Shown: positions 21,626 to 44,698 of the stretch, in pieces | Position numbering within the stretch: the first letter of the stretch is position 1 | Layout: every line of letters starts with the position of its first letter | Sequence record: MN850595.1 | Length of the DNA: 64,000 nt | Source: Escherichia phage naswa | Direction: 5' to 3' (one strand) | The notes under the pieces: model-generated | Databases searched by the model: none | What the model was told of the DNA's origin: nothing | What the model saw: the letters and a program-made list of their open reading frames with translations, nothing else | Program-made: the position numbers and the translations under genes

Positions 21626-21951
21626 CAGAGATCATCATTTCAACTGCAGGGTATGTATTCCTGACAATCATTGCGCTGGCTATTCTGGTGGCGGTGTATG
21701 GATTTGTTATCCTTCCTATTCTTGAGACATTTAGTTTGTGTCGGTGTTGGAGAAAAGCTTACGGTCCACAACCATGGAAGGACTGGCCCCACCTGGTGCG
21801 CTTAGCGTTCTCTTATGCTTACGATCACTCCAGTAGTGCATGCATAACCGGATACCACGCCCACAACTGGAGCTGGGAAGGGTTGAGGAAATGGAATGTT
21901 ACAAAGACCATACCTCTGCGCATGTACAAACCTAAAAACAAAGACAACTGA
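21622..21951 (+). CDS. Hypothetical membrane protein
   Basis: N-terminal hydrophobic helix; ATGA overlap. Confidence 0.5.
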   Translation: MTEIIISTAGYVFLTIIALAILVAVYGFVILPILETFSLCRCWRKAYGPQPWKDWPHLVRLAFSYAYDHSSSACITGYHAHNWSWEGLRKWNVTKTIPLRMYKPKNKDN

Positions 21952-21984
21952 TACTTGAAAATTCCTGGCATATCAAGTATAAGG

Positions 21985-22450
21985 GGGATTTCTAAAATGG
22001 ATTTCCTCCTTTTGATATTTCACCGGGCTGGATATTTTAAAATTCTTAGAAAATCAGAAAATGGATCGAAAACTAAAATGGATTTTTCAGAGTAGGCGCG
22101 ACAAGCTGAATAGCTCATCCTATCGTTTGCACCATATTCCAGACCACCATTATAGATTTCCCACACATGCTAACCTCCCTCTACTAGAACTTCCTCCACT
22201 TACCCTTGACCTTCTATGGTAACAATCTAACCACTATCTTGAAGTTGCGGTGCAGCTTTCCAGGTACTCGATCTACTTTTCATTTCAGGGCTTGGATTTT
22301 CTGAAAATTTTTCTCGATAAATTTCTCAGTACTCGATCTGTTTTTCGTTTTCTGAATCGGATTTTCTGGAAATCGTTCCGGATCTCGACCTGAAATTTTT
22401 GGGGACGAAATCTATTTTTCGTTTTCAGAAATGGATTTTTAAAATTTCTA
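21985..22450. repeat. Iteron-like direct repeats (AAAATGGATTT units) plus ~55-bp tandem repeats
   Basis: At least four AAAATGGAT(T/C) units and two to three copies of a GTACTCGATCT...GGATTTTCTG unit. Confidence 0.6.
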
Positions 22451-22916
22451 TATGGGAATATTTTATGGGGCACTGTTTTATAGGAAATTGTTACGGAGGG
22501 TAATTAGCATGCTAATTAAATTTATTAAATGCGAGGGATTCTTATTTAGAATTTTGAATGATAATTATTCTCGTTTGCAGAATAACGGGCAGGCCCGGTG
22601 ATTGTCTCCCGGCCCCTGCTGCCCCGGCTTGTTATTATAGTATCACACAGGACAAAGAAGGCAAGGATTTTTTGCATAAATTTTTAAATGATAATGATAA
22701 CCGTTCTCATTTTATGAAGCGCCCATCCCCGGTGGTTGTCTCCCCCGTCACCGGTGCCTGCCGTCCTTTCGATAGGTATATTATGCCGCCTGGCGGGGCC
22801 GCTGTCAACACTTTTCAAAAAATTTTTCTAACCTGATGCGCTAACCGTTGCAACCTGGCGGGGCCAGCCTGGCAGGTCCGCACTATAAAGTAAACAGCTA
22901 CAGAAGAGGTACAAAA

Positions 22917-23075
22917 ATGAAAGGTAATGCTACTCGCCTGGGAAATGTAGTGATTAATGATACGGAAGCTATCGCCCTGGTTGAAAAGGTTATGGCGGGA
23001 GCGTTGGAACATAAAGAAGAGTACGAAAAAATGGTGGTTAACCTGGCGGGGGGCGGCAGGTGGATTCTATCATAA
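22917..23075 (+). CDS. Small hypothetical protein
   Basis: ATG with AGAAGAGG RBS downstream of TATAAAGTAAAC-type promoter element. Confidence 0.4.
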   Translation: MKGNATRLGNVVINDTEAIALVEKVMAGALEHKEEYEKMVVNLAGGGRWILS

Positions 23076-32097: not shown

Positions 32098-32225
32098 TCC
32101 TTATTAACTAGAAAACAGGGCTTGCAATGGTCCTGTTTTTTGTTATACTTATTACACGGCAGGCACCTGGCGACGGGGGGAGACAATCACCGGGCCTGCC
32201 TGTCATATAAGAACTATAAAAACCG

Positions 32226-32254
32226 TTGACATCTGCCAGGTGGTGGGGTAACAT
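32226..32254 (+). promoter_or_regulatory. Sigma70-like promoter (TTGACA-17-TAACAT)
   Basis: Consensus -35 and spacing. Confidence 0.45.
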
Positions 32255-32308
32255 TTATCTTGAAGGGGCAAAAGTGCCCACACAACAACCAGAAGAGAGG
32301 AAAACATT

Positions 32309-32581
32309 ATGTCAAGCTGGATTAATCAAGAAGTCGAATCACGTTTTAATGCTATTTGGGATCTCATCGAAAAAGAGGACGGAACATCAAGCCCTTATCT
32401 CAATAATCTTGAATTCCATTTCGTGGAAGCGATGAACGCAGAACATGATCACGAAGGTGGTGCGGATGAGTTCGCTAAAGGGTATGGCTTCAACAATGCC
32501 AACGAAATGATCGAGGCGGTTGTACTCCAGGCTGAGGAAGATTATCAATTAAAAACGCTTGAATTCTGCCGCCGTAAGTAA
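32309..32581 (+). CDS. Hypothetical acidic protein
   Basis: 90 aa ORF; leader hairpin GGGGCA-aaag-TGCCC, CA-rich tract, AGAGAGGAAAA RBS. Confidence 0.5.
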   Translation: MSSWINQEVESRFNAIWDLIEKEDGTSSPYLNNLEFHFVEAMNAEHDHEGGADEFAKGYGFNNANEMIEAVVLQAEEDYQLKTLEFCRRK

Positions 32582-33766: not shown

Positions 33767-33783
33767 TTTTTTAACTGAATTAT

Positions 33784-33810
33784 CAAGGGGCTTAGGCCCC
33801 TTTCTTTTTG
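33784..33810 (+). terminator. Rho-independent terminator
   Basis: AAGGGGC-tta-GCCCCTT followed by TCTTTTTG. Confidence 0.6.
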
Positions 33811-34429
33811 TCTGCTCTTCCCCCCCTACCATAAACGGCCCTACCTGGCAAGTGGAATAATTGACGAGCCATCAATCCCACACACTGTACAAATATACAT
33901 GGAAAATAACTATTGCATAATTTTTCATTGTGTGGTAGCAAGGCCATTTTTACCCGTTTTACCTTCCAAAATTGCACGTAATGCCGCTATTGCACAAATT
34001 TTAACCTGATGCACATCTCCAATATCTTGTCAACAACTAAAAATCTTTATAAGTCATGCACTTACATAACCACAAAAGCGTGTTCTACGTGAAAAATCGA
34101 GTATAACTATAGCCGCCAGATCTCAGAATTTACGTACGCTCACCAGTCTATAGCCTGCTAAGTATTTATTCCAACCATAGAATAACGGAATAGTCAATAC
34201 CTGCATAAAATAATTATTCGTGTAAACTGCATAACATAAATCGGCTAGGATGTCAACATTTTTCGTAAACAGCTCGAAATTATAACGGTGAGTTATAATA
34301 AACAGAGAAATCTTTAGTCGTCTAATGTTTACTGTACATTACTATACTGACTGGAATCATTAGATGACTAAGAGAAAGATAAGAAATCATTAACAATGCA
34401 ATTGTTTTATTCGTAACAATAAGGCAACT

Positions 34430-34680
34430 ATGCAAACGAATGGCATGGCGCGACGGAGTCGCGACATAATATAAAAGCAGTAACCATCACCCCCGTGATA
34501 GTTTGTCTGCAAACTATTAATCAGATCATAGTTGCCTTGTATTTAGTTAATCATGACATAACAAGCAGGGCAACTATAGATCTGCTAATAGTTGCCCTGC
34601 TTTTATATTATGTCATGCTAATTATAATCAGTGCGATTATTGTCATGTATAATTATTGTCATGCAAACGAATGGCATGGC
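34430..34680. repeat. 20-bp direct repeat ATGCAAACGAATGGCATGGC (34430-34449 and 34661-34680) flanking a nested ~64-bp palindrome (34553-34616)
   Basis: Exact 20-bp repeat 231 bp apart; ATGACATAA...GCAGGGCAACTAT-10 nt-ATAGTTGCCCTGC...TTATGTCAT; ATTATTGTCATG also repeated. Confidence 0.6.
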
Positions 34681-34692
34681 TGATTATCGGTG

Positions 34693-34788
34693 TGTAAACA
34701 GTCAATCATGTAAATGGTTAGCATGTGAACAATCAGGAATGTAAACAATCCAGTGTGTAAACTAATAGGTGTGTAAAAGTGTCATGTT
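34693..34788. repeat. Six tandem iterons with 16-bp periodicity (core TGTAAAC)
   Basis: TGTAAAC/TGTAAAT/TGTGAAC units starting at 34693, 34709, 34724, 34740, 34756, 34772. Confidence 0.65.
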
Positions 34789-36265
34789 GTGTCAGTTAGG
34801 TCACATTATGTCAGACAAGTTTTTCTCCTCTTTGTCAAGTGCTGCATGAAAAATTTACAAGCTTGTATGGTAGCATTTTTGCGGCCCTGTTTACATTCAG
34901 GAGTGTATGTATAATCCTTGGTGTGTGGGCGTTTAGACGTCTAGACGGTTGGAAGTATGCAGGTCAATATCTAATCTATTGGCTGCTAACTATATCCCAC
35001 ACAAATGATAAGAAATATAATTGTTATATGCGTAAACTGTAACTCATGTTATCAATCCCTGTATGTATCGCCAGTGGTGCGCATAATGGGTATTATGTTA
35101 AATTGCCCGTAATGATAACTATTCTCACAATGATAGGTATTCTCATTCACCCCCACAAGATAGGTTGCAAATGTTGTGCCACTGTGTGAACGGCCTAGCC
35201 TATTAATTTGCCTCACTGCCTTGATATTTGAGAATTGTTATAAGAATGAGAAGTATTCCCATTTCGTCCGCCTGGCAGCACTCCAGTCGCTACCGGCTCC
35301 TGACAGGGCAGCTCTCCTGTAGGTCAGGTCAAAATCGTGGTAGAATTGGGCCTATTCAGATATTTCTGGCTGACTCTTCAGGTCTGTGTGAGAAAAGCCA
35401 ACCTTTCCGGCGGCGGGGAGGGGTCAATTAAAAAATTTACGTGGTGTATGAAGCGCTCTTCAGGTAAGGCAGGTATTATGTGATGAAACCCTCTTCAGGC
35501 AATGATATTTGTGGGTGTGATATTTGCTGGAAAGCCAGATATGACGGGACTCCCGGCGGGGCAGGGGTAGTACAGACAGGGAAAATATGGGGGATGTAGT
35601 TGGGGAAATTGATCAGGCAGGTAGAGTATGGAATATGTTACAAGTATGTTAAATATGGAGGTTGAATATCTGCAGGATTTGTGTGTAAAATCAAAGACTT
35701 AAGTGGTGTTGTGGTATTTTCTATAAATAATTCAAGTTTAATAGGTAATATTTGTCTCTATCCACTTTGTGTGGTAAACAGATTCAGATGAAATTGGTTT
35801 ACAAGTGTATACATAATATACAAATTAAAGATACAAGAAACCCCCCTCCCCCTTCGGCTACCATTCACCTTTTCCTCTGACTGGTACTTAAACACTTATT
35901 CAGACTCTTCAGGTTATCACCCATATATCATATGGCAGTGACTGGTGTCCTCCGGCCCCTCTTTCGTCACCCGTCCGCTTCGCCATGCTAATGCCATAGC
36001 CAATGGTTCGGTTGTTCACCCTGTTCACTCAGGTGTATCTCCATACCCCTTCAAACCGAAGAGAACAGAAAACCCGAATTACTCGGTAAAAGAAAAGAGA
36101 AGAACTTAATTTTATCAGGATAGGCAAGAATGTCAAGGCATGACTGCTCACTAAACAAGCAAACAGTCATGTGTGGTAGGTAAGTGATTGTGGTGGTAGG
36201 AAATTTAGTTGAAAGATGTGTTATAGGTGCGCTTCCAGCACTTTAGCCGGGCAGCTAATTGTGTG

Positions 36266-44414: not shown

Positions 44415-44698
44415 TTTCTAGTCCTCTTCTTAGATTTTTGGGGAGAAACGCTTTCTGCAATACGAGACAGACGTTCTTCTGAAGCCTTACCTACTCCAGG
44501 TTTTTTGAGTGGATTATCTTTATGACCACAATCCAACTGGATATTGGATACCTCTCCAACTTTGTAAGTCAATTCTAGCAAAAGGTTGTCGTCCTTGTCA
44601 AATGTTTTTACGATAAATTTTTTATCGTTCTCCTGAACTTCATATCTGGTACCTGCAGTATACAGCATGGTGCCATCAGCATAGGATATCCAAATCAT
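44411..44698 (-). CDS. Hypothetical protein
   Basis: 95 aa ORF, ATGA overlap. Confidence 0.5.
   Translation of the reverse strand: MIWISYADGTMLYTAGTRYEVQENDKKFIVKTFDKDDNLLLELTYKVGEVSNIQLDCGHKDNPLKKPGVGKASEERLSRIAESVSPQKSKKRTRK

Follow-up and report, generated by a model that had tools for sequence, protein, structure and literature searches.

The 64,000-nucleotide stretch of Escherichia phage naswa analyzed here (sequence record MN850595.1; hereafter the window) derives from a Vequintavirus and contains, at 21952–22916, a gene-free gap of ~0.95 kb, which is the subject of this analysis. The preceding open reading frame (ORF) stops at 21951, and the ATG of the following gene lies at 22917. 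Every gene from ~270 to 33766 is carried on the + strand. Escherichia phages magaca and EmilHeitz match the region 21900–22950 with 100% identity, and at least 80% of it is covered by 114 further rV5-like records. The gap region also matches, at 92–97% identity, 16 or 17 records that bear the name "Campylobacter phage" (MG0656xx, with C. jejuni as host); those listed are unannotated, and the records look like mislabelled or contaminating rV5-like coliphages. An earlier note on this DNA, made from the sequence alone, had placed the gap next to a replication-gene block and at the boundary of two expression programmes. However, the recognizable replication genes (helicase, primase/helicase, and a 925-aa protein) stop near 14 kb, and 14–21.95 kb is occupied by small genes without an assigned function. 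The density of strong sigma-70 matches on the + strand is 1.13/kb upstream of the gap (14.0–21.95 kb) versus 1.38/kb downstream, which speaks against a boundary of expression programmes.

The gap is non-coding. For the three ORFs annotated within it in GenBank relatives, the numbers of variable columns at codon positions 1/2/3 among eight genomes were 9/8/8, 11/11/11, and 7/5/8, respectively, whereas those for the end of the true upstream gene, which served as the control, were 4/4/12. The C-terminus of the 92-aa ORF frameshifts from genome to genome, and the GenBank records disagree on which ORFs to annotate in the gap. Because the annotated ORFs lack a codon-position bias and the calls are inconsistent between records, the earlier description of ~0.9 kb without a convincing ORF is borne out. 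The family phrog_14993 (92 aa, function not known) matches the ORF at 22558–22836, which lies over the palindromes and promoters described below and has no coding signature; the family is probably an annotation artefact that arose as conserved DNA was annotated automatically time and again. A 48-aa ORF on the minus strand, with GGGAGG as its ribosome-binding site, was also rejected, because the site and the frame are not kept in rV5 and the ORF shows no codon bias.

Among eight Vequintavirus genomes, 22040–22095 and 22263–22870 are near-invariant, above the level of the flanking coding DNA, and 22096–22262 varies freely and is the least conserved part of the gap. Across the wider group, which comprised eight lineages of Vequintavirinae plus Phapecoctavirus (dw-ec), a sensitive blastn search recovered one piece of 60–110 nt (~22516–22612) that matches unannotated intergenic DNA of distant genera, namely Certrevirus, Seunavirus, Mydovirus, Serratia/Enterobacter/Pectobacterium phages, and Phapecoctavirus. 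A syntenic gene-free gap of 0.8–1.3 kb with the same module order is present in CR3, KaOmega, PcCB7V, KPP-1, AV124, SSE121, ChuuTotoro, W70, and dw-ec. In this order, the upstream stop codon is immediately followed by short AT-rich repeats, after which come a variable spacer, three to four direct repeats, one to four palindromes, and GC-rich blocks with promoter-like hexamers. The repeats are thus not confined to this phage; looked for in related phages, the repeat modules recur in order across lineages. The near-invariance of 22263–22870 and the recurrence of the layout in seven other lineages support the view that the gap is a functional cis-acting region, predicted to be a conserved cis-regulatory module, in line with the regulatory role proposed in the earlier note. 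Capture of a host promoter was rejected as its source: the pattern of palindrome plus flank is absent from bacterial genomes, with only two contigs of metagenome-assembled genomes among 185,579 bacterial genomes carrying any, and a blastn search against E. coli returned nothing.

The palindromes follow the consensus GAATGAGAATCATTCTCATTT (also written AATGAGAATCATTCTCATT) and are present in one to four copies in every lineage; in multi-copy lineages, successive palindromes are mostly exactly 29 bp apart. They resemble the operators of the host iron regulator Fur, and three are found in the gap. Box A (AAATGCGAGGGATTCTTATTT, 22527–22547) is weak, with 17.6 bits in a position weight matrix (PWM) derived from the phage boxes, and lies 29 bp from box B, the spacing seen in the arrays of other genera. 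Box B (GAATGATAATTATTCTCGTTT, 22556–22576), which itself contributed to the PWM, scores 30.4 bits, agrees with the classical Fur consensus in 14 of its 19 positions, and forms the core of the sole segment that blastn recovers in distant genera. Box C (TAATGATAACCGTTCTCATTT, 22692–22712) scores 27.9 bits and matches the 19-bp Fur consensus GATAATGATAATCATTATC at 16 of 19 positions, equal to the ryhB and fepD-entS sites. The range of 14–16 matches in the gap corresponds to that of host sites, with 16 for ryhB and 14 for fhuA, and also spans fepD-entS and entC.

The matrix (21 nt) was built from 18 phage boxes and no host sites, and was scanned over three 50-kb pieces of E. coli K-12 (150 kb). 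The ryhB site ranked first, fhuA third, fepA-fes fourth, fepB-entC fifth and seventh, fepD-entS ninth, and feoA 15th. Six of the nine top matches fell within six Fur-regulated intergenic regions that amount to ~1.3% of the scanned DNA, for which we estimate a binomial chance of the order of 1e-10. By sequence match, the palindromes in the gap are therefore Fur-box sequences, to which Fur would be predicted to bind. No Fur homologue is encoded in any Vequintavirinae record, so that a phage-encoded Fur was rejected as the reader and any Fur-type reader would be that of the host.

Individual matches to host DNA were also seen. The second-best E. coli match of the matrix, AATTGAGAATCATTCTGAATT (19.2 bits, position 44581 of the scanned piece), lies in the map-tff/rpsB intergenic region, which is presumably not a recognized Fur target. 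Sixteen consecutive bases, ATAATCATTCTCGTTT, are common to the E. coli fhuA Fur site, at 22430–22450 of the same piece, and most other Vequintavirus genomes, with one base differing in the present genome (22560–22577), and SSE121 has the 12-mer TTGTCTCGCGAT in common with the ryhB promoter and start region. These fhuA and ryhB identities could be chance agreements between constrained sites.

When the gap was scanned with the consensus, the GC-rich part of all eight lineages had its best sigma-70 matches on the minus strand. The leftward promoter P(-)B (TTGACA-17-CATAAT, 11/12; 22780–22808, minus strand) is the stronger of only two minus-strand sigma-70 matches of at least 10/12 in 14–34 kb, where all the genes are on the + strand, and has a counterpart in all eight lineages. 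Its spacer, at 94% G+C, includes the first copy of CCTGGCGGGG, and an A/T tract at 22812–22829 occupies the place where an UP element would be expected. The second leftward promoter, P(-)A (TTGCCT-16-TACTAT; 22637–22664, minus strand), aligns with the other promoter-element units, has minus-strand homologues in CR3 (2111), KPP-1 (2146), SSE121 (2113), and ChuuTotoro (2133; positions in the respective loci), and passes the threshold in four lineages. In the leftward promoters, the TTG and the A2 and T6 of the -10 hexamer are kept at a spacing of 16–18 nt, whereas the G+C-rich spacers are unrelated in sequence. The retention of hexamers and spacing while the spacers diverge is the signature of a real promoter. 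The hexamers are conserved, and transcription from them would be predicted to start near 22632 for P(-)A and 22773 for P(-)B. As calculated from the coordinates, five lineages have the center of the proximal Fur-like box at +61 to +66 relative to the predicted start of P(-)A, and for the leftward promoters overall the box lies at ~+61 to +71.

Several other genera carry a small leftward gene preceding P(-)B, of at least three unrelated types: DUF7170/phrog_4653, phrog_19316 (in W70 and Phapecoctavirus dw-ec), and a third type in ChuuTotoro. Examples on the minus strand of the related loci, designated by L numbers, are found at 2327–2518 in L005, 2274–2540 in L010, 2292–2501 in L008, and 2318–2584 in L004, with no counterpart in the gap of the present genome. 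The presence of these genes elsewhere suggests that leftward transcription of the region is a general feature. In the opposite direction, the candidate rightward promoter P1 (TTGAAT-18-CAGAAT; 22554–22583, + strand) is a weak prediction that encloses box B. Its hexamers are kept in six of nine lineages, with W70 and dw-ec lacking the -35 hexamer and KPP-1 and L026 lacking the -11A.

Each leftward promoter is followed by a GC-rich element. Element A (22586–22632, minus strand) contains CCGGTGATTGTCTCCC (22595–22610), so that a transcript from P(-)A would read GGGAGACAAUCACCGG, and element B (22716–22772, minus strand) contains CCGGTGGTTGTCTCCC (22729–22744). These correspond to the two copies of CCGGTG(A/G)TTGTCTCCC that had been described previously, at 22595 and 22729. 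For CCTGGCGGGG, which had been listed in three copies, those at 22789 and 22854 stand, the first being the P(-)B spacer; the third, at 23042, lies past the end of the region then delimited, within the first early gene. A third promoter-element unit is found outside the gap in inverted orientation (32122–32200, + strand), consisting of TTGCAA-16-TATACT followed by GGGAGACAATCACCGGGCCTGCC, and is also present in phage Gotham. There, GGGAGACAATCACCGGGCCTGCC (32178–32200) is a 23-nt perfect inverted repeat of 22588–22610, and the orientation of promoter to element is kept.

The same elements had been taken for repeated hairpins, a description that the folding results contradict. They fold no better than dinucleotide shuffles on both strands (minimum free energy z-scores of -0.23 to +0.38, with -0.23 for element B). 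RNAalifold found no shared structure across 12 lineage variants of the GC-rich element or across 17 iteron cores, and a hand-specified 4-bp stem was equalled by 42 of 500 shuffles, with no significant covariation. In the gap and eight related loci, Rfam gave nothing better than E = 4.7. The GC-rich elements are sequence motifs, not structures. It is accordingly very doubtful that they represent small structured RNAs or terminator hairpins, such as Fur-regulated small RNAs, even though each of the three element copies lies directly downstream of a promoter and + strand transcripts at 22588 and 32178 would be perfectly complementary over 23 nt. Compensatory changes (CCCC:GGGG versus CCAA:TTGG) in a neighboring ~110-nt element of other genera would also favor such RNAs. 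Besides the z-scores near 0 on both strands and the lack of a consensus structure, significant covariation, or an Rfam match, no terminator-like site was found beside the elements. An anti-Shine-Dalgarno seed in GGTGATTGTCTCC was rejected as well, because the one site that complements it perfectly, at 32179, belongs to a further copy of the element and is no ribosome-binding site.

In other genera, the highly conserved ~110-nt element, CTACCGGCGATCCACCTTCC...GTTAGCCCCGCCTTTTCGCCGTGGGGTGGCG, is flanked by P(-)A and P(-)B (~2138–2232 in the CR3 locus; also in L004–L006, L008–L011, and L023–L034). It shows further apparent compensatory changes (ACCAGG:CCTGGT versus other pairs), has no Rfam match, and is a possible undescribed phage RNA. 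It is not present in the gap of the present genome, where the second Fur-box unit takes its place.

The left part of the gap holds the repeat modules. In the first, AT-rich module (21990–22095, + strand), AAAATGGAT(T/C) occurs at 21994, 22058, and 22075, and GATATTT at 22014 and 22031. The three AAAATGGAT(T/C) copies are all those on the + strand of the window, with 0.013 expected from a Markov simulation. Of the at least four units counted in the earlier note, these three exact copies are far above chance, and the fourth is GAAATGGAT, a single variant copy at 22428. Other genera carry analogous runs of GATATTTG or GAAATnGnTTT after the upstream stop codon. The variable spacer that follows (22096–22262, + strand) is C-rich and G-poor, and its GC skew of -0.42 is within the lowest 0.5% of equal-length windows; ChuuTotoro, W70, and dw-ec are alike in this respect, whereas KPP-1, CR3, and SSE121 are not. 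The spacer might act as a Rho-utilization-like or R-loop-prone stretch. As a universal feature, such a stretch was rejected, since it is present in four of eight lineages.

Three direct repeats, hereafter iterons, lie on the + strand to the right of the spacer. Iteron 1 (GGTACTCGATCTACTTTTCATTTCAGGGCTTGGATTTTC, 22263–22301; 37.3 bits) aligns with 16 units from other genera, iteron 2 (22328–22366) scores 44.3 bits, and iteron 3 (22402–22440; 26.8 bits), which was left out of the matrix, is degenerate at its 5' end and terminates in GAAATGGATTTTT. The 39-bp core is GGTnCTCGATCGnnTTTTCnnTTTCnAAAnCGTATT, with conserved ends and no indels between them, and the core length is put at 36–39 bp overall. 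The iteron PWM, built from 14 units that were mostly of other genera, has only these three matches in the 64 kb, with the next best at 5.3 bits. A repeat unit, previously described as two to three tandem copies of ~55 bp, is therefore real, yet it consists of three 39-bp cores at spacings of 65 and 74 bp, over which Tandem Repeats Finder called no array. In W70 and Phapecoctavirus dw-ec, arrays at the same position have different cores, and the Fur-like boxes are unchanged. Lineage-specific iterons combined with invariant boxes fit a phage protein acting on the iterons and a host protein acting on the boxes. Sigma-E promoters within the iterons (GTACTC-16-TCTGA) were dropped by eye because the -35 AAC is not conserved and only about one-third of the units have a matching -10. 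The G+C content reaches its lowest local value, 0.325–0.335, at 22300–22600. Between iteron 3 and box A lies a perfect 18-bp palindrome, TAATTAGCATGCTAATTA (22501–22518), which is kept in eight genomes, some with single-base variants, and is genus-specific, not being present in other genera. In the CR3 locus (2117–2136) and at the same place in L004–L006, L009, and L011, the sequence TCTTTACAnTTCTTTACAAA reads GTAAA-N5-GTAAA on the other strand, which we take to be the CpxR box consensus; it occurs in other genera only and is absent from this gap, and was dropped as a candidate.

Such an arrangement might serve as a replication origin, in which a phage initiator would act on the iterons, the AT-rich stretch would unwind, and the leftward promoters would activate or prime synthesis. 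This explanation overlaps with the one that we prefer below, and we consider it possible though short of probable. The restriction of the three iterons to this site in 64 kb and their lineage-specific core are consistent with it, as is the position of at least three direct repeats (the three 39-bp units) beside the AT-rich stretch with the lowest G+C. The conserved promoters would fire into the iteron array, a transcript across 22262–22096 would be G-rich in four lineages, and downstream of the primase/helicase block the gap has small-gene arrays on either side. However, neither a DnaA box (TTATCCACA, one mismatch allowed) nor an IHF site (WATCAANNNNTTR) is present in the gap, and other lineages have only scattered, non-homologous single sites, so that an origin based on DnaA or IHF was rejected. 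The iterons, 65–74 bp apart, are not helically phased. The neighboring ORFs lack a Pfam domain, show no recognizable initiator or DNA-binding domain, and are not common to the genera; for the upstream 260–282-aa proteins that other genera carry, the window contains no homologue. The idea of an initiator or repressor gene beside the gap was rejected, as the neighbors are of no known function and unrelated from one genus to the next. The skew analysis by the rV5 authors found no change at ~117 kb, the corresponding position (PMC3606486), and the cumulative skew here dips only locally. Finally, GATC is not enriched in the gap (4 observed versus 3.7 expected), a count on which GATC/SeqA clustering was rejected.

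Transcription-activated origins include the T7 primary origin and T4 oriF and oriG, and the lambda ori is an iteron origin. The gap resembles these by sequence in having promoters that point into AT-rich repeats, lineage-specific direct repeats, and a position at ~8–15% of the genome near DNA-metabolism genes. It differs from them in that its iterons are 65–74 bp apart, no initiator gene overlaps or adjoins it, and its promoters are of the host sigma-70 type.

Taking the boxes, promoters, elements, and iterons together, we favor, with a probability of about 0.5, the reading that the gap is a Fur-gated, leftward-transcribed non-coding control module. The sigma-70 promoters P(-)B (22808) and P(-)A (22664) would fire leftward, against every neighboring gene. 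Each transcript would comprise first a conserved G-rich leader, GGGAGACAAYCACCGG, and then a palindrome of Fur specificity ~60–70 nt from the predicted start. The weak rightward P1, which encloses one box, would face P(-)A. When iron-loaded host Fur fills the boxes, P1 would be repressed and the leftward transcripts would be obstructed. When iron is scarce or Fur is titrated, leftward non-coding transcription would enter the AT-rich array of three lineage-specific iterons, to which a putative phage-encoded protein probably binds. Both the roadblock and repression logic and the outcome of iteron occupancy, which may be origin activation or insulation of the early block, are inferred from this arrangement.

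The E. coli Fur promoters (ryhB, fhuA, fepA-fes, and entC-fepB) have the same 7-1-7 type of palindrome, TGATAATnATTATCA, with a comparable 19-bp match. As at ryhB, box B lies between a -35 and a -10 hexamer, here those of the candidate promoter P1, and the sites are clustered in both. In contrast to the host promoters, the phage boxes are located on a virulent genome beside non-coding DNA rather than iron genes, and their contact with Fur is predicted from sequence. They are spaced 29 bp apart rather than overlapping by 6 bp, lie ~60–70 nt downstream of the best promoters, and have copies in the terminal repeat. Coliphage 186 pR/pL is a face-to-face promoter switch. In the gap, the predicted rightward (~22590) and leftward (~22632) starts likewise converge over ~40 bp, with a putative operator on one of the promoters. 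Unlike those of 186, the starts in the gap are predicted, no repressor gene is present, and the leftward unit encodes nothing.

Several observations weigh against the Fur-gated module. This gap contributed two of the 18 boxes from which the matrix was built, making the scores of these two circular. P(-)A in this genome is weak, matching at only 8/12, and boxes located 60–70 nt downstream of a start are atypically placed for Fur repression. P1 would provide the classical operator overlap with box B, yet it also matches at 8/12 and is not kept in every lineage. No terminator for leftward transcripts was found in the gap. Our literature search turned up no description of Fur sites from phages of this group, and no binding or transcript data for it. 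In addition, heptamer position 4 of the palindrome is occupied by a symmetric G/C (TGAGAAT, not TGATAAT) that is conserved across genera. Given this base and the copies at the edge of the terminal repeat, the palindromes could in truth be read by a phage protein such as a terminase or end-binding factor.

The terminal-repeat copies were located as follows. The direct terminal repeats of Vequintaviruses are 458–459 bp long (PMC6658697, PMC6563267, PMC7471380), and mapping from the annotated repeat_region of Gotham placed a 459-bp repeat at 34814–35272. Fur-like boxes within it (35110–35264) score 26.7, 18.4, and 14.9 bits at 35244, 35128, and 35110, respectively, and were not part of the matrix; one of the boxes sits 9–29 nt from the physical left end. 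A genome terminus or pac site in the gap was thereby ruled out, as the 459-bp repeat maps ~12 kb away.

These end-proximal copies would be in keeping with the palindromes being operators of a phage-encoded protein that is merely Fur-like in specificity, such as an early repressor, an end-binding factor, or a terminase-associated factor. The symmetric T-to-G change and the exact 29-bp spacing of the arrays, as opposed to the 6-bp overlap of host Fur clusters (PMC2189734), point the same way. We nevertheless judge a phage-encoded reader unlikely, since a matrix derived from phage boxes retrieves host Fur sites as its top matches, and the motif stays constant while the iterons and neighboring proteins diverge, as would fit a conserved reader in the host. 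The analysis identified no phage protein as a candidate.

The terminal repeat lies within a second, larger gene-free stretch (33770–36200) between convergent gene blocks, which is probably the unexplained grey "non-coding" box on the map of the rV5 paper. This stretch also has a unit like the Fur-like box plus ACGGGCA of the gap, in the opposite orientation. Moreover, close to the terminal repeat the + strand has three copies of TGATATTTG (35222, 35503, and 35518), two of which are 15 bp apart. Tandem GATATTTG opens the counterpart of the gap in other genera, so the non-coding regions of the gap and the terminal repeat have motifs in common.

In genomes with defined termini, the distance from the gap to the virion DNA's left end is 11–12 kb, or 8.0–8.7% of the genome, and the early gene array reads toward that end. 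This position recalls the T5 injection-stop signal at 7.9%, raising the question of whether the gap closes a first-transferred segment in a two-step entry. Like T5 repeat region 3 (Davison, bioRxiv 10.1101/866236), the gap is a conserved non-coding region of ~1 kb at ~8% from the left end, with repeats and palindromes whose order is kept among relatives with diverged coding regions, and with a partner inverted repeat nearer the end. The latter belongs to the sole long-range inverted repeat, of 23 bp, which pairs 22588–22610 with 32178–32200. Daunorubicin sensitivity, common to Vequintaviruses and T5-like phages (PMC13250531), is a very indirect point in the same direction. Unlike the T5 region, however, the gap contains no DnaA boxes, the core of the proposed T5 signal, and it lies outside the terminal repeat, which is 459 bp rather than 10 kb long. 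The genes on both sides are alike, small, and served by sigma-70 promoters. The rV5-like phages are not known to inject in two steps, and we hold a T5-like signal to be highly improbable.

Two further regions complete the description. The leader of the first early gene (22848–22916, + strand) contains TTGCAA, two copies of CCTGGC(G/A)GG, TATAAA at 22884–22889, and a ribosome-binding site ahead of the ATG at 22917. The spacing of its hexamers, 30 nt, is non-canonical in this lineage, and a 48-bp indel separates the lineages. At 32109–32260, a terminator-like hairpin overlaps the TTGCAA-16-TATACT of the third unit, followed by the inverted GC-rich element and then by a second promoter, TTGACA-17-TAACAT, before the gene at 32309.

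Each of the components (Fur operators, iterons, and convergent promoters) is known, and their conserved combination in a virulent subfamily, together with terminal copies, is not described in the literature searched. It suggests a hitherto undescribed connection of host iron status with the early programme of a virulent phage. Many "hypothetical proteins" in GenBank, like the phrog_14993 family, appear to be annotation artefacts over this regulatory DNA. A further proposal, that in rV5-like and related phages arrays of genuine sites for host Fur, located where the early block has its inner edge and in each of the two terminal repeats, serve as an iron sensor and decoy, is in our judgment decidedly unlikely. 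If it were true, the sites as sensor would gate leftward non-coding transcription into the iterons, licensing an origin or insulating the early block. As decoy, hundreds of genome copies would titrate Fur and de-repress host iron uptake, amounting to a natural Fur titration assay, and Fur bound at the ends might also protect the DNA ends on entry. The cis elements marked out here, namely the three iterons and the leftward promoters, are available for origin mapping and safe genome engineering. Vequintaviruses and their relatives have a broad host range and recur in therapy and biocontrol collections, and their regulation is almost unexplored. If the operators are real, the outcome of infection would hinge on the iron status of the host, and this status is very different in laboratory broth from that in the gut or bloodstream.

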